Below, piece by piece: positions 6,888 through 25,244 of a DNA stretch of 64,000 nucleotides (position 1 is the stretch's first letter; every line of letters starts with the position of its first letter). The DNA is from an uncultured Anaerolineales bacterium (GTDB lineage: Bacteria; Chloroflexota; Anaerolineae; Anaerolineales; UBA11858). Made by a program: the position numbers and the translations under genes. The stretch spans positions 729 to 64,728 of the forward strand of contig CAYORF010000005.1 in the NCBI GenBank assembly GCA_964406305.1, in the 5' to 3' direction. The notes under the pieces are model-generated. The model saw only the letters and a program-made list of their open reading frames with translations, was not told where the DNA came from and made no database searches.

Positions 6888-8393
6888 TTACCGTTGTATC
6901 TGATTAACATCAGTGTTAGTGTCTTCCGCTTGAATGGTTTGATCACCGCGAACCATTAATCCCTGGTATGGATATCCCAAACCTTGAGATATCCAGCCAT
7001 CCAAGTTAAATGGAATATTCTGATCAGCGGGAATCCATTCTCCATTATACCGCCGGGCAATATGCAGGTGTGACCCAGTGGAGACGCCACCTTCACAGGA
7101 AGGATGGCCGATCCGATCGCCGGCTTCTAATATTGCTCCCAGTTCTACTCGGCCTCTAGTTTCGATATGCATATAAAGGATTGCCCAATTGGTCTGATCG
7201 TATGGGTCACCGTCAATGCTTTGTACTACTGCGCCGTGATCCGATCGAGTAATAGGGCCATCGGCTACCGCGACTACCCAATCATCGCTAAAGCTGCAGC
7301 CCAGATCCTTATCGGCTGGAGCAAAATCGAGTGCTGCCCAAGCAGACCCATCATCCCATCCACCATGGGGGCCTCCTGTGAATAACCATGCTGCGCCTTC
7401 TTCGAATGGGAGCTGAAGAATGGGTTGGGTCAAGTCATAAGGGATCATCGGAGTGTAGTTATAGTCAAAGGGGTATCCATAGAGGGCTGTATATGTGTTG
7501 ACAAAACCGGTTTCTGACACAGCATCAAGCCACTTATTGTAGGACAGTACCCGTGCAAATAGATTCTGGACCCCGGCAGTTCCGGCATTGATGGTGGAAT
7601 CTATTGGTACATTTATTCCATCTAAACATGCCCAGGCGCCCACTCCGCGCACCTTCCATAGGTAATAACCCCGGTTGAGCTCATCAGCTGCCCAAGCAAG
7701 TTGATAATACAGTCCTTCGTATCCACCTTCCCTGTACTCCAGCGGATAGGGATTGTTTAAATTATTCGATCCGGTCAACCACCCAGTTTGATATTCGATG
7801 ATAGCCAGAAGAAGTCGCGGATTTACCGAATAATCCTGGGAAACTCGGGCTATGACCTCAGCGGCAGTCTGTACCTCTCCATCAATTTCTTCCTCGTGGT
7901 TCTTGAGATAACCTGGCTGATTATTGATGAAAGCCTCAATTTGGAAACGAATAGTGTATGGGCTGCGGACTAATTCGGAATCAGGGATGATTTTATATCC
8001 TGGTCCGATCTCGCTGACATCAGGAGCCGGGAGCAGTAGCTGCTGGCCGGCATAAATTAAGCCAGAGTTAGGAATCTGATTGACTTCAATGATCAGTTCG
8101 GGGAGCACATCATGCCGGTAGGCAATCGATTTAATCGTATCTCCCCATTGGACTGAATAATATACATCCTCAGTACGCAGTGTCGGCAGCGGTTTTGGGG
8201 GACTGGGGGTCGGTGTGATAACCGGTTGATTAGGTATCCTGGTAGGAGGAATGTAAGGATCGGAAGTAGTTTCGACATCACCCTCAACTCCTACATTGGA
8301 GAAGTTAATATAGGGAGCGGTATGCGCCTGCCGGGTGCAGGCACCGATCAACAAGCTCAATAAAACCACTGTGGATAATCGTATAGTTTTCAT
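6888..8393 (-). CDS. LysM + M23 peptidase lipoprotein (paralog 1 of 3)
   Basis: Lipobox LLIGAC. LysM (YSVQWGDTIKSIAYRHDV). GHPSCEGGVSTGSHLHIARRYNGEWIPA. Confidence 0.85.
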   Translation of the reverse strand: MKTIRLSTVVLLSLLIGACTRQAHTAPYINFSNVGVEGDVETTSDPYIPPTRIPNQPVITPTPSPPKPLPTLRTEDVYYSVQWGDTIKSIAYRHDVLPELIIEVNQIPNSGLIYAGQQLLLPAPDVSEIGPGYKIIPDSELVRSPYTIRFQIEAFINNQPGYLKNHEEEIDGEVQTAAEVIARVSQDYSVNPRLLLAIIEYQTGWLTGSNNLNNPYPLEYREGGYEGLYYQLAWAADELNRGYYLWKVRGVGAWACLDGINVPIDSTINAGTAGVQNLFARVLSYNKWLDAVSETGFVNTYTALYGYPFDYNYTPMIPYDLTQPILQLPFEEGAAWLFTGGPHGGWDDGSAWAALDFAPADKDLGCSFSDDWVVAVADGPITRSDHGAVVQSIDGDPYDQTNWAILYMHIETRGRVELGAILEAGDRIGHPSCEGGVSTGSHLHIARRYNGEWIPADQNIPFNLDGWISQGLGYPYQGLMVRGDQTIQAEDTNTDVNQIQR

Positions 8394-8676
8394 AATACAG
8401 GGTACATTTTACCTTTAAGTAGGAGAAGACAGCCCCTGATAATTCCTTGCTGGTTAATATTGCAAGAATAATACCGTTTCAGCCCGAAAAACCAGTCACA
8501 GATGGACAGATTTGGGCGGAATTTGGCCTAAGGTCGATAATAATCATTTGAAGATGTCATATATCGGGGAAAATAAGGAACATTATGCTTTACTGATAAG
8601 GATGTTTCCAGTATGATTATGAAGATTACCTCTGCCTGTTCGAAGGCAAATGAATGATATAAGGACTCGAGGTTTA

Positions 8677-9405
8677 ATGAAAGCATTGGTTATGTCAGAT
8701 ATTCATGGCAATCGCACTGCCCTGGAAGCTGTTCTGGAAGCTGCCGGGAAGGTCGATGCTGTCTGGTGCTTGGGGGATATTATCGGTTATGGTCCAGATC
8801 CAAACGATTGTGTCTCTATAATCAGAGACCTCCCCAACCTGGTTTGCCTACGGGGTAATCATGACAGCGCAGTGATCGGATTAACCGAAAAAGGGAAATT
8901 CAATTTTGCGGCTCAGAGAGTGATTGAATGGACCGAGGAGCAGCTGAATCCTGTTCACCGGCAATATTTGCAGACTTTGTCACCACAAGCGAAAGTTGAC
9001 CAGGTCACGCTGGCACATGGCAGCCCCAGGGATCCCGTCTGGGAATATATTATGGATGTCTATACGGCAACCGACAATTTCGAATATTTTGATACCCCTT
9101 ATTGTTTTATTGGACATTCGCATCTCCCGGTTTTATATTATATGAAAGAAGGAAAAGGGTTGGCGAATGTCACCTTTGTTTATCCAGGCGACACAGCTAA
9201 ACTTCCAGAAAACACCATTGTGAACCCAGGCTCGGTTGGACAACCCCGTGATCACGACCCCAGGGCGGCTTTTACAATTTATGATACGGAAGAAAATACC
9301 TGGGCCCAACACCGGGTACCCTATGATATTTCCGAAGTTCAGGCCCGGATGACCCAGGCTGGTTTACCGATCGAGTATGTACAACGGCTAGACCTTGGTT
9401 GGTAA
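8677..9405 (+). CDS. Metallophosphoesterase family protein (YfcE/MJ0936-like)
   Basis: MKALVMSDIHGN, GDIIGYGPDPN, GNHD and GHSH motifs. Start moved to the ATG at 8677 (GAGG 5 nt upstream); the ORF is open from 8650. Confidence 0.8.
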   Translation: MKALVMSDIHGNRTALEAVLEAAGKVDAVWCLGDIIGYGPDPNDCVSIIRDLPNLVCLRGNHDSAVIGLTEKGKFNFAAQRVIEWTEEQLNPVHRQYLQTLSPQAKVDQVTLAHGSPRDPVWEYIMDVYTATDNFEYFDTPYCFIGHSHLPVLYYMKEGKGLANVTFVYPGDTAKLPENTIVNPGSVGQPRDHDPRAAFTIYDTEENTWAQHRVPYDISEVQARMTQAGLPIEYVQRLDLGW

Positions 9406-16358: not shown

Positions 16359-16943
16359 TCAGTTGGTTGAGGTCCTTAAGCGCCGGCTGAGGATGATGAT
16401 CACCATTAATACTCCTGCAACCAGGACCAGCCCCGGAACCCCGAAGTCGTCGGCGAATCCCGTATCCGGGAGCGCAGTTGCTGTTGGAATCGGAGTAGTC
16501 CCTCCTCCACCAGCTTGTTGTGTCAGCAGGGCGGCAACCGTTTCTGTGGCGGCCGGATCGTCAGTTCCATCCGGTGTATTAGTGGGCGCCAAGACGGGAG
16601 TTGATGTGCTGCTAGGAATCATGGTAGGAGTATTCGTAGGCGGCGATGTTGCTGTAAAGGTGGGGGTCATTGTTACCTGTTTGGCAATTGCCGTCAGCTG
16701 GGCTTCCTCTGCCACTGCTGTATTGGTCGCATTTATCTCAGCAACCTGAGTCTGTTGGCCAGTATCACGACTTGGCAAGTACAGGACAGCATAGGCAGCA
16801 ATCGCCAGCAAAGCGATCAGGAGAATACCTCCAAGGATACCTGCAACGATCAGGAAGGTTCGATTTGAACCTCTGCTGGTTGAGATAGTCTCTTCACTCC
16901 CAATTTCTTCGAAATCCATATCTTCAAAATCGTTCATTCCCAT
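16359..16943 (-). CDS. Thr/Pro-rich surface protein with C-terminal LPDTG sorting-signal-like tail
   Basis: Acidic N-terminus, TM helix (FLIVAGILGGILLIALLAIAAYAVLYL), T/P-rich spacer, then LPDTG + hydrophobic helix + RRLRTSTN. Confidence 0.65.
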   Translation of the reverse strand: MGMNDFEDMDFEEIGSEETISTSRGSNRTFLIVAGILGGILLIALLAIAAYAVLYLPSRDTGQQTQVAEINATNTAVAEEAQLTAIAKQVTMTPTFTATSPPTNTPTMIPSSTSTPVLAPTNTPDGTDDPAATETVAALLTQQAGGGGTTPIPTATALPDTGFADDFGVPGLVLVAGVLMVIIILSRRLRTSTN

Positions 16944-16996: not shown

Positions 16997-18055
16997 TCAA
17001 TCCTTAAGAATTTCCAGGTTAGTAAGCGGTAATATTGTACTCTTTTCATTGGCAAACCTGACTTCTACGAGTTTGGTTTCGATGCCATTGGATAGGCCTT
17101 GTTTGCCAGAGATTATTTTATCAATTTCCCCAATTTGCGGGGCTTGCGGTCCATTTATAATGATAACCTTTTTACCCACTTTGAGTGTTTCAGCTTCTGA
17201 GGGTAAATCTGGTTCAGAAGTAGATGATTGTGAAATGATACCCTCGGGGAAGTTTCCCCGGAAGGTGTCAAGTTCCTGGGCATTCAAAGCAATATTCTTA
17301 TCTTTGTTTTCGATCAGGATAGCTTCAGCTGCCTTGTTCATGGGTGTTTCACGGAAACCATCAATTACCATGATCGGGTAATCTATCTTTTTTGCCAGGG
17401 GTATTAGCTCCGAGGACATGCTGCCCAGGATCAATCCCTTGATTGGTACGATACCAGCAGCTTTCAGCACTTCTGGTTCCCTGCAGTATCCAGCTGTAAT
17501 GATCGAGCCCCTGAATCCTATATTGAGCTGTTCTACGACCAGTTCCTGCAGCATATCATTGCTGATAGGCTGTACGACGCCGTAGGTGATCTTGCCGTTA
17601 CCCCATACTCCTTGTATAAGGGCTCCTTTGGTTTCTATAATGGCGCCCCGTTCAGGGATGATATTTGTGACAGTTCCTTCCATGCCCGCTTGTAGTTCGA
17701 ACTCGGGGGAAATGATCTCGTATAATACTTTTCCTTCTCCTGCTATCCTTACGATTCCAGGCTGAGGTGCCCGAACCACGCGCTGGAATATTCCCACTGG
17801 TCCTGCGATGATATCTCCCTGTACTAGGTCTTCACCAGCCTGACGCTGGAGAAGTTCATCCGCCCGGACTGGGTTTACATTAAGACCCTGGGCAATATCT
17901 AGGAGAACGAACTTGGGAGCGAGAGGAGCGACCACAATCACATCTGCGGGGGATACTTTTTGCATCCGACGGACGAGGACATGACCGGCTACAGGTAGGA
18001 CCCGTTCCCGTTTTATGCTTGTGAGTGCATGGATATGTTTAACTTTACTGATCAT
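16997..18055 (-). CDS. Hypothetical soluble protein (352 aa), operon partner of the MutL-like ATPase
   Basis: Long ORF in operon context. No family recognised by eye. C-terminal KVGKKVIIINGPQAPQIGEIDKI resembles a KOW/SH3-like strand pattern (weak). Confidence 0.5.
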   Translation of the reverse strand: MISKVKHIHALTSIKRERVLPVAGHVLVRRMQKVSPADVIVVAPLAPKFVLLDIAQGLNVNPVRADELLQRQAGEDLVQGDIIAGPVGIFQRVVRAPQPGIVRIAGEGKVLYEIISPEFELQAGMEGTVTNIIPERGAIIETKGALIQGVWGNGKITYGVVQPISNDMLQELVVEQLNIGFRGSIITAGYCREPEVLKAAGIVPIKGLILGSMSSELIPLAKKIDYPIMVIDGFRETPMNKAAEAILIENKDKNIALNAQELDTFRGNFPEGIISQSSTSEPDLPSEAETLKVGKKVIIINGPQAPQIGEIDKIISGKQGLSNGIETKLVEVRFANEKSTILPLTNLEILKD

Positions 18056-19844: not shown

Positions 19845-20549
19845 CTAAAATGAAGAGAATAATTGAAAACCAATTGAGTTCAGGAAAGCCCAGAATGAGG
19901 ATAATCTCTCTACCAGGGCGGCCAGGGCAGTCAGGAATACACCAGCGTACAAGGCACCAAAGGTTATCGCCAGAAAGACCTTCCCTACTTTACTTGCATA
20001 TTCGATTATCGGCAGCCTTTTATCGGATTGTCCGGGTGAATCCTGGGTTCCAAAATGAAAATAGATCAGGGTAGTGACTGTTCCCAGGACAACGATGATT
20101 CCATTAATTGCTTGGTCCCAGCGGTTTGTGGTGATGGTATAGGCCGATGGATCCACGCTGTTGATTGTACCCAAGATTTGGGGGAAGAGTGTGCCAGTGA
20201 TCGCACCGCCGATGGCTGCTGCAGCCCCAATTCCAACCAAGATGGCAACTGACCAGTTACCAAGCTTGCGGAGAGGCGTCACTTTGAAAAACAAGAAAAC
20301 ACCGGGTATGAAAAGCAGGATCGATAATAAACGTTCTCCCTGTGTACCCTGGATGAGCGGGATGATTAAACGCGGGATCAACACATTATTGACTGTGACG
20401 ATGGCAACATATCCGGCAGCGACACCAATAAAAATGTGGATTGCCAACCGGAAAAACGGATTATCACCGAGTAAATAGCTGAAGATCAAGAGCGTCAGCA
20501 AAAATCCCAAGGATATTCCAATGAAGTCCATCATATTTGCCATATTCAC
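19845..20549 (-). CDS. Polytopic membrane protein (234 aa), unknown family
   Basis: At least 6 hydrophobic helices. 4-nt overlap with the upstream 1000-aa gene. Confidence 0.65.
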   Translation of the reverse strand: MNMANMMDFIGISLGFLLTLLIFSYLLGDNPFFRLAIHIFIGVAAGYVAIVTVNNVLIPRLIIPLIQGTQGERLLSILLFIPGVFLFFKVTPLRKLGNWSVAILVGIGAAAAIGGAITGTLFPQILGTINSVDPSAYTITTNRWDQAINGIIVVLGTVTTLIYFHFGTQDSPGQSDKRLPIIEYASKVGKVFLAITFGALYAGVFLTALAALVERLSSFWAFLNSIGFQLFSSF

Positions 20550-23548
20550 TTAACATCTCCTGCAACTCTGGATCTGTGGCGGGAGAACAGGGACAAAACG
20601 CCATTTGCCAATCCGCCAATAAAAATCGTACCAACAGTGATGATGATACCCAAATTGAATGGAAGCCAGGCTGCGGTGGCCAGATTTGGTCGGTTCAACA
20701 GCTGTTCATAATTCATGCTATCAATAATCCCGGAAACATAACCTTTTAGCAATTGGGGTGATGAGCGGAAATAAGGTTGGATCAATGGCTCAGCTTGAGC
20801 GCTGACTACCATGTTCAAAGGGGTGTCTTCCAGGATAGTGCCCACTTGCTCGATCCAGATCTTAGCTGTATCTGGATCATCTGTAATTACTAGAACCATT
20901 GCAAAATCATTTATTGAGTCAACTTTCAAAAGAGGGGGAGATCCCCAGGCATTGCTGCCGTCAAAGGCCAGGGGGATTATCTTCTTTGGTGCTACAACGA
21001 AACTTAACAAGCCAGCTGATTCGCCTGGCAAATAACCCAGGTTGATGTAGTGCTGGGTATGGATGTAATCGTGTTTTCCTTGGGTGGTGGCTAGGAAATG
21101 ATCTGCCAGGGCTGGTCCGGTAGGCTGAGTTGAAATAAAGGATAGATAAGTGCCTTGTTTCATCAAGTGGTCAACGACACCAGCCGCCGCGGCATATAAT
21201 TCTCCTGCAGAGGCAGGCTGGTAATCAAATGCGATCAAGACAGGCTGACCATCGTACAAACCCTCGATCTGTTCATATAGAGCCCCGTATCCCGAATTTA
21301 GAACCTGGGCAGAAGTGGGGGGTTCTGTTTTAACAACTCCGCCAAAAATGATCGTCCCTGCTGTGGTTACCAGCATGATAATAGCAATCAACCACCGCAA
21401 TACTCTTTGGGTTGCAACCGGAGCGGGTTTCAGGATGGTTTTTGTTTTGTTCTCATCTGCGATGAGCTTCTTCAGTACATTGACATAATCTTGGTGGGAT
21501 TTAGAGGCAAATAGATCAAGTGGTTTTCTGGCGGCTTTCTCGGGATCAAAGGCACTTTCTGCTTCAGCAGGTAGCACACTTGGGATTCCTGCCAGAGGCC
21601 CGTAATTTTCAATATAATCCTCATCCTCGGAAAGTCCAGTGGCATCGGTCGATTCTACGACCGGACGCATGGCTTCTACCCAACCGGGTAGTTCTCCCTG
21701 GGATAATTCATCTTCAAAATCTTCAAACACAGAATCTGATGATGCAGATGTCAGCCAGCTGGGCAGCTCATCGCTGAAGAGATCGTCAAAAAATTCTTCT
21801 TCTTCGACCTGGAATGGGTCAATGACTGAATCGGTTCCATCTTCGCGTCCTGCTAAAAATTCCAAATCTTCGGGGATCTTCTCAGCGGCCTTCTTTTTTT
21901 CTTCCGCCCAGGATGGGAATTTGATCTGTTGGGAATCACTCAATCCTGTGGCCGGTTCGTCATCATCATCTTCTTGTGGAGGGAGCTTATCAGTGATACC
22001 CCTTACAATTGCAGGTTTATATTCCTCGTTAGTGCGGTCTTTTTTCAGCAGGAATGCATTTAAGGATTCGTCATCCCCATCAATATGGAGCCAGGCTGGT
22101 AAGTCGCTAGCGGGAGCGGCCTCATCGCTATCAGCAGCTGGCGGCGAATATTCCGGTGGCTTTACCTCTTCTGATATTTCCTCTGCCGGTGTATCAGACA
22201 CAGAGAGCCAATCTGGGAAGGATGAATCCTCATCCACCATATCGCTGCTTTTATTCAGTCTTTTGATCTTGTCCAGCCAATCAGTTTGAGGTTTTGAGGG
22301 CTCTGGTGGAGTTTCAACGGTTGACTTTCTGGAATCAGGGTCTTGGAGCATGTCCAACCAACCAGAATCCTCGCTGAAACCAGGAGAGCCAAACTCCGGT
22401 AAAGGATCTTCATCTTCATCATAAAGGTCAGGGCGAAAACCGATAGGGCCTGGTTCGCTTTCTGGATCTGGCGTTAAGAAGTCCAATTCCCCTGCCGGTT
22501 CGCCCGCGGGTTGTTCTATTACGGCAGCTCCTTCCTCTCCATCCAGGGATGCTAAAATGTCCAGCCCCCCGGCAGTATCTGGGTCCGGTTGTTCAGTTAT
22601 CACCGGTTTTTCTTCAACGCTCGGAGTGGTCAAGAAATCCCATTCATCAACAGGGCCCTTGGATGGTTCTTCCAGGACAGGCACTTCTTCAGCAGAAGGC
22701 GATGTTAGGAAATCCCACTCATCAACTGGACCCTTTTCAGGTTCTTCTTTCTGAGGAGGTTCATCCGCAGCAGTGGATGAAGAAAGGAAATCCCATGCGT
22801 CAACCTGTTCCTCGGTTTGTTCTTCTTTCTGAACAGGTTCTTTTTCTGTAGAAGGTTTAGCTAGGGAATCCCACGCCTCTTCGGGTTTTTGGGCAGGGCT
22901 TTCCTCTTCAGGAGTGCTGTCATCGGAAAGTGAGCTAAGAAAGTCCAAATTGTCCGCAGGTTCTTCAACTGGTGGAGTTTTTCCTGATAGGCTGTCTTCG
23001 GCGGAAGGCTCGGTAAGGTACTGCCAATCTCCCCCGGTTTTTTCTACAGGAGTTTCTTCTCCTAACAGTTCATCACGTGCAGAGGGTTCCAAGAAAGGGT
23101 CGAAGGCAGGAGGATCCGGTTGCTTCTTTTCTTCCTCCTCGGAACTTGTAAATGGATCATCAGTTGCGAAGAAATCGTCCAATCGGGAGGAAGCTTCGGA
23201 TTCTTCTACCGGTTGTGTGTCTCCTCTTGTGTCGGAGGCATCCAAAGGATCCGGGGCGGGGATCAGATCATCCAGCCTGGAGAAATCATCCGTTGATTCC
23301 GCAGTTTGGGTTGCCTCTTCCAGGGGTTCTTCTGGAGACAATAAACTGTCTAAACGTGCGCCCTCATCCAGTGGTTCCGCGGATTGGACTGGTGTTTTGG
23401 TATCGTTATTGTCGAATAGATCGTCTCGCAGGGAGGGACTATCGAGTGGTAGGGGATCCACGCTGAACAAGGGAGCACTACAATGATCACAAAAATTATG
23501 ATCATCTGTATTGGGTTTTCCGCAGGTTGGGCACAGGATCTCAGTCAT
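20546..23548 (-). CDS. Zinc-ribbon protein with ~690-aa acidic repeat region, two TM helices and a ~220-aa extracytoplasmic domain
   Basis: N-terminal CPTCG..(N11)..CDHC. Asp/Glu/Pro-rich region with repeated (D/E/P)-x-W-(D/L)-x-L motifs. TM at about residues 717-739 and 959-986. Confidence 0.75.
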   Translation of the reverse strand: MTEILCPTCGKPNTDDHNFCDHCSAPLFSVDPLPLDSPSLRDDLFDNNDTKTPVQSAEPLDEGARLDSLLSPEEPLEEATQTAESTDDFSRLDDLIPAPDPLDASDTRGDTQPVEESEASSRLDDFFATDDPFTSSEEEEKKQPDPPAFDPFLEPSARDELLGEETPVEKTGGDWQYLTEPSAEDSLSGKTPPVEEPADNLDFLSSLSDDSTPEEESPAQKPEEAWDSLAKPSTEKEPVQKEEQTEEQVDAWDFLSSSTAADEPPQKEEPEKGPVDEWDFLTSPSAEEVPVLEEPSKGPVDEWDFLTTPSVEEKPVITEQPDPDTAGGLDILASLDGEEGAAVIEQPAGEPAGELDFLTPDPESEPGPIGFRPDLYDEDEDPLPEFGSPGFSEDSGWLDMLQDPDSRKSTVETPPEPSKPQTDWLDKIKRLNKSSDMVDEDSSFPDWLSVSDTPAEEISEEVKPPEYSPPAADSDEAAPASDLPAWLHIDGDDESLNAFLLKKDRTNEEYKPAIVRGITDKLPPQEDDDDEPATGLSDSQQIKFPSWAEEKKKAAEKIPEDLEFLAGREDGTDSVIDPFQVEEEEFFDDLFSDELPSWLTSASSDSVFEDFEDELSQGELPGWVEAMRPVVESTDATGLSEDEDYIENYGPLAGIPSVLPAEAESAFDPEKAARKPLDLFASKSHQDYVNVLKKLIADENKTKTILKPAPVATQRVLRWLIAIIMLVTTAGTIIFGGVVKTEPPTSAQVLNSGYGALYEQIEGLYDGQPVLIAFDYQPASAGELYAAAAGVVDHLMKQGTYLSFISTQPTGPALADHFLATTQGKHDYIHTQHYINLGYLPGESAGLLSFVVAPKKIIPLAFDGSNAWGSPPLLKVDSINDFAMVLVITDDPDTAKIWIEQVGTILEDTPLNMVVSAQAEPLIQPYFRSSPQLLKGYVSGIIDSMNYEQLLNRPNLATAAWLPFNLGIIITVGTIFIGGLANGVLSLFSRHRSRVAGDVK
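22586..22735 (-). repeat. Coding tandem repeat (2 x 25 aa) inside the 1000-aa gene
   Basis: KGPVDEWDFLTSPSAEEVPVLEEPS / KGPVDEWDFLTTPSVEEKPVITEQP (residues 272-321). More diverged copies extend over about 22454-23041. Confidence 0.8.
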
Positions 23549-23550
23549 GA

Positions 23551-24195
23551 TTATTCACCGTACGGTCTATCAGTTCCCATTAGGACCCGGATACCGGTTG
23601 TTATTGTGCCCAGAGCAATACCCAACAGCAGCCCACGGGCTCCTCCCAGGGCTGGGACACGAAGGATCCAATCGTGAATCACATGAAGGAATGGAAGCGT
23701 AGCTGGGGGTATCGAAAAAGACCCCAGCAGGACTAATAAAACAACAAAAAAGAAGACTATTGAGAACAGGTCCATCCGCTTGCGTAGGATGCTGGCGGCT
23801 GCATAAGTAAGGCTGACAGCTGTTACAGCAAGCAGACTGGTTTCAATTGGAAGCTGAATATTAGTGAAGATCCAGCTGGTCATCTGGAAGTTAGGTTTAC
23901 CGACCAGATAGGTCTGGACCATGTCAATAATGCCAATAATTAGTGTGGCCAGCAGAGCAATTACAAGGATCAGGCTGTAACCGGAATTTTCGCTATCCGC
24001 TCCTAGTTTTTTAATATGGACGGTGATTAGATTGATAATGCCAACAAGAAGCGCAACCGCTGACAGGACCAGGCCGGCTCTCAGAAGGATAATGCGGATA
24101 TTTATAAATGCGGGAATGAAATATCCGGCCAGGACAATAATGCCGACTCCAATAGCAACTGCGGTAGAGACAGGAGATTTCAGATTAATCTTCAA
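23551..24195 (-). CDS. Polytopic membrane protein (214 aa), unknown family
   Basis: At least 5 hydrophobic helices. ATGA overlap with the upstream gene and 2-nt gap to the downstream gene. Confidence 0.65.
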   Translation of the reverse strand: MKINLKSPVSTAVAIGVGIIVLAGYFIPAFINIRIILLRAGLVLSAVALLVGIINLITVHIKKLGADSENSGYSLILVIALLATLIIGIIDMVQTYLVGKPNFQMTSWIFTNIQLPIETSLLAVTAVSLTYAAASILRKRMDLFSIVFFFVVLLVLLGSFSIPPATLPFLHVIHDWILRVPALGGARGLLLGIALGTITTGIRVLMGTDRPYGE

Positions 24196-24989
24196 ATTGA
24201 ACCTGCCAGGATTTTTTCAATAAATACGTCAATTCCAAGAATATTCAGTAAAACGCTGGCCAGGATGATAAAAATGATGATCCAGCGAACGACATCTTGG
24301 GCTGATATGCTTGCCTGGTGCATTTTTCCTGCACCGAGGTAGGCCCCTCCTGCAAATAATTCTTCACCAATTAGAGGATCTGAGGCGCTGGCATAGATGA
24401 CAGCCTGAGCAGGGAGCTGAGAAGTGCCGGCGATGGTTGGGCTGCTTTGCCTCTCACCAGCAGTCGTGATCCAGGTGATTTCGTTACCAAACCACCCCGT
24501 GTGGATATTGGCGGAGACATTATCGTTCCGGATTGTGCTCAAAGTGCCTACAGCGTAAGAAAAAGGTGTAACGCCGACCAACTCTCCGGATGGGTTTTTA
24601 ATGTTATCTGAAATACTGATCGCTTTTGAGCTTCCTTTGATCGTATCCTGCGCCAGAATTGATATTACAGGGTTTCCGGTGGAGGCAACCGGGGGATGAT
24701 CGCAAACAGAGGATTTTTCAATGACCTGTTTTAGGATACCTAATCCAGCCAATGCGGCAGCGGATTCGGGACCGGTAATGCCCCCACTGCCCAGGGAAAT
24801 ATGCAGCTGAGAACCGTCCTCAACAGCAACTTTGATTTCCTGGATGATTTTGTCGTAGGCGGGAATCGGGCGGATATTATAGGTTTTTCGGTCCTTATTA
24901 ATGAACGAAAAAAAGACCATTAAACCAACAAAAAGTACAATTACCATTAATCCCGTGAAGCCAGTAGCAGACACAGATATTTCCTCCAA
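24192..24989 (-). CDS. Bitopic membrane protein (265 aa) with N- and C-terminal TM helices, unknown family
   Basis: TM FTGLMVIVLFVGLMVFFSF and TM VVRWIIIFIILASVLLNIL flank a ~200-aa Gly/Ser/Ala-rich domain (GSGGITGPESAAALAGLGIL). Confidence 0.6.
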   Translation of the reverse strand: MEEISVSATGFTGLMVIVLFVGLMVFFSFINKDRKTYNIRPIPAYDKIIQEIKVAVEDGSQLHISLGSGGITGPESAAALAGLGILKQVIEKSSVCDHPPVASTGNPVISILAQDTIKGSSKAISISDNIKNPSGELVGVTPFSYAVGTLSTIRNDNVSANIHTGWFGNEITWITTAGERQSSPTIAGTSQLPAQAVIYASASDPLIGEELFAGGAYLGAGKMHQASISAQDVVRWIIIFIILASVLLNILGIDVFIEKILAGSI

Positions 24990-25244
24990 CTAGGTTGTTG
25001 GTTCGTAATTTCTGAGTGCCTCGATAAATAACGTTGTTTCGGATGGGTCTTCTAAAATCTTGGCTAAGTCCTGGGATTGATCTTTAGGGATGAAAGGGGA
25101 CAAAACTGGTTGGCTGAGATAGACCAGCTGGGCGCCAAGCAGATTCATTGGACCCAGAGCTTCCAAGAAGGTTGCGGTGAGGTTCTGGAGCCGTAATTTA
25201 TACAGCGATTCAATCCATTTTTTCCTGTTTTCTTGAATTTTCAT
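24990..25244 (-). CDS. Small hypothetical protein (84 aa), first gene of the operon
   Basis: ORF abuts the next gene with 0-nt spacing. No family recognised. Confidence 0.5.
   Translation of the reverse strand: MKIQENRKKWIESLYKLRLQNLTATFLEALGPMNLLGAQLVYLSQPVLSPFIPKDQSQDLAKILEDPSETTLFIEALRNYEPTT

Follow-up and report, generated by a model that had tools for sequence, protein, structure and literature searches.

The gene studied here lies in a 64,000-nucleotide (nt) stretch of DNA, referred to as the window, from an uncultured Anaerolineales bacterium (assembly GCA_964406305.1, contig CAYORF010000005.1, positions 729 to 64,728). It is the fourth gene, g4, of an operon of eight, and encodes a protein of 1000 amino acids (aa) that is composed of a zinc ribbon, an acidic disordered arm, a transmembrane (TM) helix, an outside alpha/beta domain, a second TM helix and a basic tail. 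The arm carries many copies of a short tryptophan motif, seven of which have a Trp that is invariant in all aligned orthologues. Because conserved motifs are displayed on a floppy arm within a strictly conserved operon, the g4 protein is probably a multi-site docking scaffold. The best-supported reading, to which we give a probability of about 0.5, is that an as yet uncharacterised envelope complex uses this arm for multivalent docking in the cytoplasm. The architecture, the topology by the charge rule, the conservation of the motifs, the variation in their number and the conservation of the operon are shown by the data, and we infer that the motifs bind a protein, as well as which protein this would be.

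Results

Architecture and membrane topology of the g4 protein

The open reading frame (ORF) of g4 was recovered on the minus strand with an ATG start, at the position and length given in an earlier note on this DNA (Table 1). The arm, residues 30-716, contains 184 Asp and Glu against 51 Lys and Arg residues, which corresponds to 27% Asp plus Glu, together with 11.5% Pro and 9.8% Ser. No hydropathy peak was seen within it. Both results agree with the Asp/Glu/Pro/Ser-rich region without hydrophobic core that had been described before. The AlphaFold2 model covers residues 607-1000. Within residues 607-680 the predicted local distance difference test score (pLDDT) is below 50 apart from one six-residue helix. 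By its composition, the lack of a hydropathy peak and the low pLDDT of residues 607-680, the arm is classed as disordered.

The only hydropathy peaks of the protein are located at residues 715-741 and 959-988, and AlphaFold2 places helices at 711-735 and 956-997. The two TM helices that the earlier note had drawn around a domain of about 220 aa are thus matched by both methods. Averaged over 211 family members, 15 residues contain 2.3 Lys and Arg in front of TM1 and 3.2 behind TM2; where the two helices border the loop the values are 0.4 and 1.0. Of these members, 92% obey the positive-inside rule for an orientation with both termini inside. No signal peptide was found in the g4 protein. The charge rule, the Cys4 zinc ribbon and the absence of a signal peptide together place the arm in the cytoplasm, which supports the earlier assignment. 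Its proposed tethering to an outside-facing domain is supported as well, since AlphaFold2 shows a folded domain between the two helices. The model of residues 607-1000 has a mean pLDDT of 80, with values above 90 through most of the domain, and displays a parallel-stranded alpha/beta fold between two long helices.

A Foldseek search of the PDB with the 215-aa outside domain returned generic Rossmann-like matches only (best E 1.7e-3, TM-scores at most 0.40), and the GxGxxG motif is absent after strand 1 (VLIAFDYQPASAGE). The nucleotide-binding Rossmann families (SDR, alcohol dehydrogenase and SRP GTPase) were considered for this domain and discarded, as neither a specific structural match nor a Gly-rich loop was present. 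An NAD(P)-binding role was likewise rejected for a domain that lacks this loop and is extracytoplasmic.

The zinc ribbon is formed by the knuckles C6, C9, C20 and C23, and the N-terminus reads CPTCG-N9-CDHC. The cysteine pattern noticed earlier is therefore correct, but its spacer is nine residues long instead of eleven. The Pfam family Zn_Ribbon_1 (PF13240) matches the g4 protein with 24.9 bits (E 1.6e-5), 0.1 short of the gathering cut-off of 25, and a precomputed match to the same family is present in most relatives. The Cys4 pattern was matched in nearly all full-length family members; in an alignment of 54 sequences, three of the four cysteine columns are listed with a conservation of 90% or more. 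Distant relatives bear double zinc ribbons.

A repeated tryptophan motif in the arm

The 12 Trp positions and contexts reported in the earlier note are all exact, and its Leu/Phe variants NLDFL, GLDIL, ELDFL and DLEFL are all present. The motif copies around Trp are real, although their definition as W-x-x-L had to be revised: only eight of the 12 Trp fit W-x-x-Phi (Phi, hydrophobic residue), and Phi-P-x-W-Phi describes them better. Enrichment was assessed with 5000 shuffles of the arm region. The pattern [DEPSGA]-W-[LDAV] was observed 11 times against 2.4 +/- 1.4 in the shuffles, none of which reached 11. The pattern [WLF]-D-[FISEL]-L occurs eight times with 0.4 expected, and W-x-x-[LIMVF] also eight times with 2.4 expected, a count reached in three of the 5000 shuffles. 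One 25-aa unit is duplicated in residues 272-321 (22586-22735). The two copies share 18 of 25 residues, including the first 11, which is well below the near-perfect tandem repeat claimed before. At the DNA level (repeat family D1) a 39-nt core is 82% identical at a spacing of 75 nt, and the 75-nt repeat was not reported by Tandem Repeats Finder.

Conservation along the arm was mapped in an alignment of 82 zinc-ribbon-bearing orthologues and differs strongly from zone to zone (Table 1). Motifs of the SRLDD[LF] type near the N-terminus are found in two to three copies in most close orthologues. The repeat zone that follows, residues 130-385, is hypervariable, with a mean identity of 0.27, and the N-terminal part as a whole ranges from 82 to 538 aa. 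Repeat copy number among homologues, a comparison suggested in the earlier note, does vary: EWDFL-type copies, counted as W[DE]x[LMI], number from 0 to 6, and Trp residues from 4 to 39 per arm across the family.

Residues 386-630 contain the motifs GWLDML (W397), DWLDKIKRLN (W424), FPDWLS (W447), LPAWL (W486), FPSWA (W547), LPSWL (W598) and ELPGWVEAMRP (W623). All seven Trp are 100% invariant in the 82 orthologues. Moreover, the motif windows in this half are 0.85 identical, compared with 0.52 for the spacers. Read from the alignment, these are conserved islands between fast-evolving spacers, in which the motif recurs from orthologue to orthologue. The highest conservation in the arm was found in the block of residues 617-664 (21557-21700, minus strand; GELPGWVEAMRPVVES...YIENYGPLAGIPSVLPAEAE), which is 90-100% identical in the 82 orthologues. 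AlphaFold2 gives a pLDDT of 40-48 for residues 629-680, within which much of this block lies, and leaves them unstructured. Since the block is the most conserved part of the arm and yet unstructured in the model, it is likely to be an interface whose folding is coupled to binding.

The motif across the family

A protein search returned at least 120 relatives of g4, and a search with the arm only yielded 103 further. All relatives with a named source belong to Chloroflexota, mostly metagenome-assembled genomes (MAGs) of Anaerolineales, Ardenticatenaceae and Promineifilaceae. Nearly all of about 220 relatives share one architecture, in which one or two zinc ribbons and an acidic Trp-bearing region of 300-1200 aa are followed by two TM helices with a domain of about 220 aa between them. 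The g4 protein had no match in the NCBIfam library, and no curated family describing it was found. Literature searches (DUF6754, PDWL, Chloroflexi actin-like and zinc-ribbon proteins, Anaerolineae sortase) retrieved no description of the protein, the operon or DUF6754.

The consensus around Trp in 124 distant relatives is E-[ED]-L-P-D-W-L-x-[ED]-L. Among the 2461 Trp windows from these proteins, Leu occupies position -3 in 42%, Pro -2 in 57%, Asp -1 in 61%, Leu +1 in 70% and Leu +4 in 35%. The context is sharper (L-P-D-W-L) in the distant members, in which the identity of the C-terminal region is no more than 24-41%. In the arms of the family, 2.5% of the residues are Trp and 0.4% are Tyr, which is striking for a disordered region. 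The distance from one Trp to the next has a mode of 23-31 residues and is seldom below 12; this distribution is broad and is inflated by closely related sequences. If the motif is helical, positions -3, 0, +1 and +4 of the logo (Leu, Trp, Leu, Leu) would fall within an arc of about 100 degrees and form a small hydrophobic face amid acidic residues. The last motif copy of the g4 protein is modelled by AlphaFold2 as a six-residue helix, 622-627.

The relative P0222 carries 12 near-identical units of 27-28 aa (IPDWLAELRPSEPE), from which we conclude that repeat expansion is ongoing. In another relative, P0109, residues 437-451 gave a short local match to Pfam RHH_9 (PF19839, profile positions 47-61) on a motif copy, EEVPDWLKSF; this hints that the C-terminal end of the RHH_9 model resembles the Phi-P-x-W-Phi motif.

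A total of 3822 six-frame ORFs of at least 100 aa were collected from 1.57 Mb of the window and related loci. All of those with three or more Phi-P-x-W-Phi motifs represent the g4 gene. One apparent exception, in the locus L046, sits between g3 and the C-terminal match to the g4 protein and appears to be the split N-terminal half of the orthologue. This half (7894-8964, plus strand) is a separate ORF of 357 aa with eight motifs; a frameshift or an error in the assembly may have caused this, or the gene may truly be split. In the arm-only database search, 98 of the 103 returned sequences are orthologues. The only other architecture with the array seen in that search was P0207, a metagenomic protein of 600 aa without TM helix. 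In this protein the LPDWL array is combined with a double zinc ribbon and, at the C-terminus, with a CxxC...CxxC domain (PF13834). These searches suggest, in a sample that is small relative to whole genomes, that the motif array is almost exclusive to the g4 family.

The eight-gene operon

The g4 gene is the fourth of eight tightly packed, collinear genes whose reading frames overlap or abut (Table 1). The gene order is kept in 82 of 82 loci as far as the contigs reach, and also in loci where the g4 protein is only 28-48% identical. When one genome per GTDB species was scanned with a pattern, relatives were confirmed at 161 places, from which 78 loci were kept. All of these come from Anaerolineales/Chloroflexota MAGs, except one bin labelled Nitrosomonadaceae. 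The genes around the operon are housekeeping genes. Promoter and terminator scans for the operon boundaries gave no signal above chance, and no ftsZ was found in the window or in the 82 loci. None of the eight operon proteins matched a PADLOC defence model, and a role as a defence system was rejected in view of the conserved housekeeping neighbourhood in which the operon lies.

Table 1. Coordinates of the parts of g4, of the genes of its operon and of g8 orthologues. Positions are those of the window; for the g8 orthologues they are those of the locus named.
Feature	Position	Strand	Basis or content
g4, the target gene	20546..23548	minus	1000 aa, ATG start
Zinc ribbon, residues 6-27, C-x2-C-x10-C-x2-C	23468..23533	minus	Pfam PF13240 and Cys conservation
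Three [AS]-R-L-D-[DS]-[LF] motifs, residues 63-68, 89-94, 120-127	23168..23362	minus	conservation map
Hypervariable repeat zone, residues 130-385	22394..23161	minus	DWQYL, AWDSL, AWDFL, two EWDFL, NLDFL, GLDIL, ELDFL, 25-aa unit
Conserved motif half, residues 386-630	21659..22393	minus	seven Trp motifs
Juxtamembrane cytoplasmic segment, residues 631-714	21407..21658	minus	continues conserved block 617-664; AlphaFold2 helix 683-699
TM helix 1, about residues 715-741	21326..21406	minus	hydropathy, AlphaFold2, charge
Extracytoplasmic Rossmann-like alpha/beta domain, about residues 742-958	20675..21325	minus	AlphaFold2; no Cys
TM helix 2 (about residues 959-988) and basic C-terminal tail SRHRSRVAGDVK	20549..20674	minus	hydropathy, AlphaFold2, charge
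g1, 84-aa conserved small protein, first operon gene	24990..25244	minus	ORF and collinearity
g2, DUF6754 protein, TM helix at both ends	24192..24989	minus	Pfam PF20539, 89 bits
g3, 214-aa polytopic membrane protein	23551..24195	minus	stop codon 2 nt before g4 start
g5, 234-aa polytopic membrane protein	19845..20549	minus	start overlaps g4 stop by 4 nt
g6, MutL/GlmL-family actin-fold (ASKHA) ATPase, 585 aa	18082..19839	minus	Pfam PF13941
g7, 352-aa soluble protein, C-terminal KOW/SH3/Tudor-like barrel	16997..18055	minus	profile and structure matches
g8, 194-aa protein, acidic N-terminal cytoplasmic DFxxxDF tail, TM, Thr/Pro-rich linker, LPDTG signal	16359..16943	minus	sequence
g8 orthologue, L001	16773-17375		
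g8 orthologue, L002	16956-17594		
g8 orthologue, L003	14065-14685		
g8 orthologue, L004	19210-19938		

The g6 protein matches PF13941 with 208.5 bits (cut-off 27, E 2e-61) over profile positions 1-448 of 450, and the same family was matched by all 20 g6 orthologues scanned. Against the NCBIfam GlmL equivalog it scores 95 bits, below the cut-off of 475. Weak FtsA matches were found in four of the 20 orthologues (best E 0.026). Beyond the Pfam domain, g6 continues for about 120 aa (residues 466-585) as a C-terminal extension that is conserved and rich in beta structure. The g6 orthologue of the locus L004 has 731 aa, and its upstream side bears an insertion of two additional genes.

When the PDB was searched by sequence and by profile, g6 had no match and g7 only a KOW-like trace. 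The AlphaFold2 model of g7 has a pLDDT of 54, the poor quality being due to the homologues listed, which are all at least 55% identical. Only its C-terminal barrel of about 60 aa found structural matches, and resembles PetP, KOW and Tudor domains. The g7 protein is well conserved: its orthologue in the locus L001 is 66% identical, compared with 48% for the g4 protein there. The N-terminal part of g7 looks barrel-sandwich-like in a region where the model is unreliable, and one orthologue gave a faint RnfC_N match.

The C-terminus of g8 follows the pattern of sortase substrates, with ALPDTG, a hydrophobic stretch and the basic tail RRLRTSTN. The corresponding signals are LPNTG in L002, LPQTG in L004 and a variant, LSKTG, in L003. 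On this pattern g8 could have a membrane anchor at one end and a cell-wall anchor at the other, and because its LPXTG-type sorting signal is conserved, the complex may be tied to the cell wall.

The g2 protein also has a domain of about 200 aa between terminal TM helices, and basic residues follow its TM1. By the charge rule this suggests that the g2 domain faces the cytoplasm, opposite to that of g4. A comparison of the TM-domain-TM part of g4 with the g2 DUF6754 protein was non-significant (hhalign probability 6%, E 0.006, 199 columns collinear; BLASTP E 2.4).

Discussion

Proposed function and alternatives

We propose that the g4 protein would be the scaffold subunit in an envelope complex made from the products of the eight genes, which were found here only in Anaerolineales/Chloroflexota. 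Its two TM helices would hold the Rossmann-like domain outside the cell, while some 700 residues would project into the cytoplasm as an acidic disordered arm with the zinc ribbon at its tip. Most likely, each Phi-P-x-W-Phi motif would dock with low affinity, by folding into a groove of some cytoplasmic protein. The array could thereby hold several copies of the partner at the membrane complex, and the zinc ribbon may act as a distal binding head. The first candidates for partners are the soluble products of the operon, the ATPase g6 and the KOW/SH3-ended g7. Several points weigh against this proposal. Within the actin fold, g6 falls in the GlmL/hydantoinase-like branch, for which no role in peptide docking is known, and the model of the other candidate, g7, is the poor one described above. 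The gene of the partner could also lie outside the operon and encode a housekeeping protein. The protein may be able to do without the hypervariable EWDFL zone, and the acidic repeats of MamJ were reported to be dispensable in work cited in PMC5059902.

It is doubtful that the arm acts by bulk physics without a specific partner, either as an acidic entropic or electrostatic brush or as a membrane-attached sticker-and-spacer condensate with cations or basic proteins. The net charge of about -0.2 per residue with 27% Asp plus Glu, the even spacing of the aromatic residues and the high variability in arm length and copy number (N-terminal part 82-538 aa, 4-39 Trp) are what such a mode of action would produce. 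A brush, however, has no need of invariant residues, whereas here the order of the motifs is preserved and seven Trp are fixed together with the Pro and Leu that flank them. The strong net negative charge disfavours the self-association of a condensate, and the defined hydrophobic face of the putative helix exceeds what a lone aromatic sticker would call for. We consider it very unlikely that the motifs are interfacial membrane anchors, with Trp and Leu inserted in the cytoplasmic leaflet and the arm either stretched out on the membrane or acting as a sensor of its curvature. Trp is generally known to favour membrane interfaces, and the motifs are amphipathic on an arm that is already tethered to the membrane; their hydrophobic face, though, spans only about four residues amid Asp and Glu, which anionic bacterial lipids repel, and no basic residues flank them. 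That the Trp motifs are functionless remnants of recent tandem duplication, the pure low-complexity drift already raised in the earlier note, is hardly credible for the arm as a whole and was not borne out. The recent duplications in the EWDFL zone, with its mean identity of 0.27, and the 12 near-identical repeats of P0222 are in keeping with drift, which is possible for that zone alone. For the C-terminal, conserved half of the arm we exclude drift, because its seven Trp are invariant in 82 orthologues; moreover, the motif is kept in relatives with a C-terminal region of only 24-41% identity, and Trp reaches 2.5% of the disordered arms.

An unlikely but more specific alternative is that the array is a tether, ruler or nucleator of a g6 filament, with one subunit per motif about 25-30 residues apart, or that it mimics the FtsZ tail and engages FtsA or SepF. 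The Phi-P-x-aromatic-Phi pattern matches the FtsZ tail core, the spacing mode of 23-31 residues would suit a filament, and the ASKHA ATPase gene lies two genes downstream in every locus, with the weak FtsA matches in four of the 20 ATPase orthologues (best E 0.026) pointing the same way. By analogy, the array could be likened to nebulin or WH2 repeats on actin and to acidic MamJ on MamK. The FtsZ tail is a landing pad for actin-like FtsA as well as for ZipA and SepF (PMC3418248), and MamJ offers the precedent of an acidic protein beside an actin-like gene (PMC5059902). The spacing distribution, on the other hand, is broad and inflated by close relatives. Residues after the motif are acidic, in contrast to the basic residues after the FtsZ tail core. 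Moreover, g6 is a confident member of the MutL/GlmL family (208 bits), which is not known to polymerise. A still bolder extension, which we regard as speculative and unlikely, is that the operon forms an unrecognised membrane-tethered cytoskeletal or trans-envelope system of Anaerolineae. The array, with its pattern like that of the FtsZ tail, would then bind one g6 subunit after another. In this way it would nucleate or tether a polymer, or measure its length, at a complex with access to the cell wall through the sortase-anchored g8.

Comparison with known systems

By analogy of design, the closest bacterial precedent would be GltJ. This protein of the Agl-Glt gliding machinery of Myxococcus xanthus is part of a trans-envelope machine and has a cytosolic zinc ribbon, a 95-residue linker with partner-binding motifs, a GYF domain and a membrane anchor (PMC11135422). 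Both proteins thus have an N-terminal cytosolic zinc ribbon, a flexible motif-bearing linker and then a membrane anchor. They differ in that the arm of g4 is about 690 aa long and acidic with a repeated Trp motif, and in that the contents of the operons are unrelated. The g4 protein did not match the GltJ model (NCBIfam NF033761, cut-off 450 bits) and has no GYF domain; only g8 gave a weak match to part of this model, at 19.9 bits against the cut-off of 450.

The pair MamJ-MamK of magnetotactic bacteria, in which MamJ links a membrane structure to the actin-like MamK (PMC5059902), resembles g4 and g6 in that an acidic, repetitive and hypervariable protein is encoded near the gene of an actin-fold ATPase. 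Compared by description only, MamK is a true actin that forms filaments, and g6 is a member of the MutL/GlmL family. A further contrast lies between the seven invariant motifs of g4 and the acidic repeats of MamJ, which are dispensable according to the work cited there.

The core of the FtsZ tail is I-P-x-F-L, with acidic residues before it and basic residues after it. The likeness to g4 would consist in a short hydrophobic-Pro-x-aromatic-hydrophobic motif at the end of or within a disordered linker, preceded by acidic residues. FtsZ has one copy at its extreme C-terminus, while the g4 family has 4-39 internal copies with Trp in place of Phe and with acidic residues on the following side. CdpC, a membrane anchor of haloarchaeal FtsZ1, binds a cytoskeletal protein with a distal zinc ribbon on a long linker (bioRxiv 10.64898/2026.07.16.738847). 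It shares with g4 the combination of a zinc ribbon, a long, fast-evolving disordered linker and membrane attachment. The likeness is one of design; CdpC is archaeal, attaches by an amphipathic helix, has two zinc ribbons and is described without a motif array.

In eukaryotes, epsin with its DPW repeats and Eps15 with its DPF repeats dock multivalently and with low affinity to a hub protein. They resemble g4 in that a folded module at the membrane is joined to a long, disordered arm with many copies of a short aromatic motif; the motif itself differs, and the comparison is by analogy only. Eukaryotic cells rely on disordered arms with arrays of short linear motifs as a central principle of their organisation, and few such arrays have been documented in bacteria. 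The array of the g4 family is an unusually clear case, with up to 39 copies, invariant Trp residues, a fast turnover of copy number and an apparent restriction to one family. It is set within a strictly conserved envelope operon of the Anaerolineales, which are widespread and for the most part uncultured. The motif provides a concrete handle for finding the partner, and the identity of the partner would open the function of the whole complex. Among the systems compared here, the g4 protein is a variation on the design of a membrane scaffold with linear motifs, placed in a lineage-specific operon.

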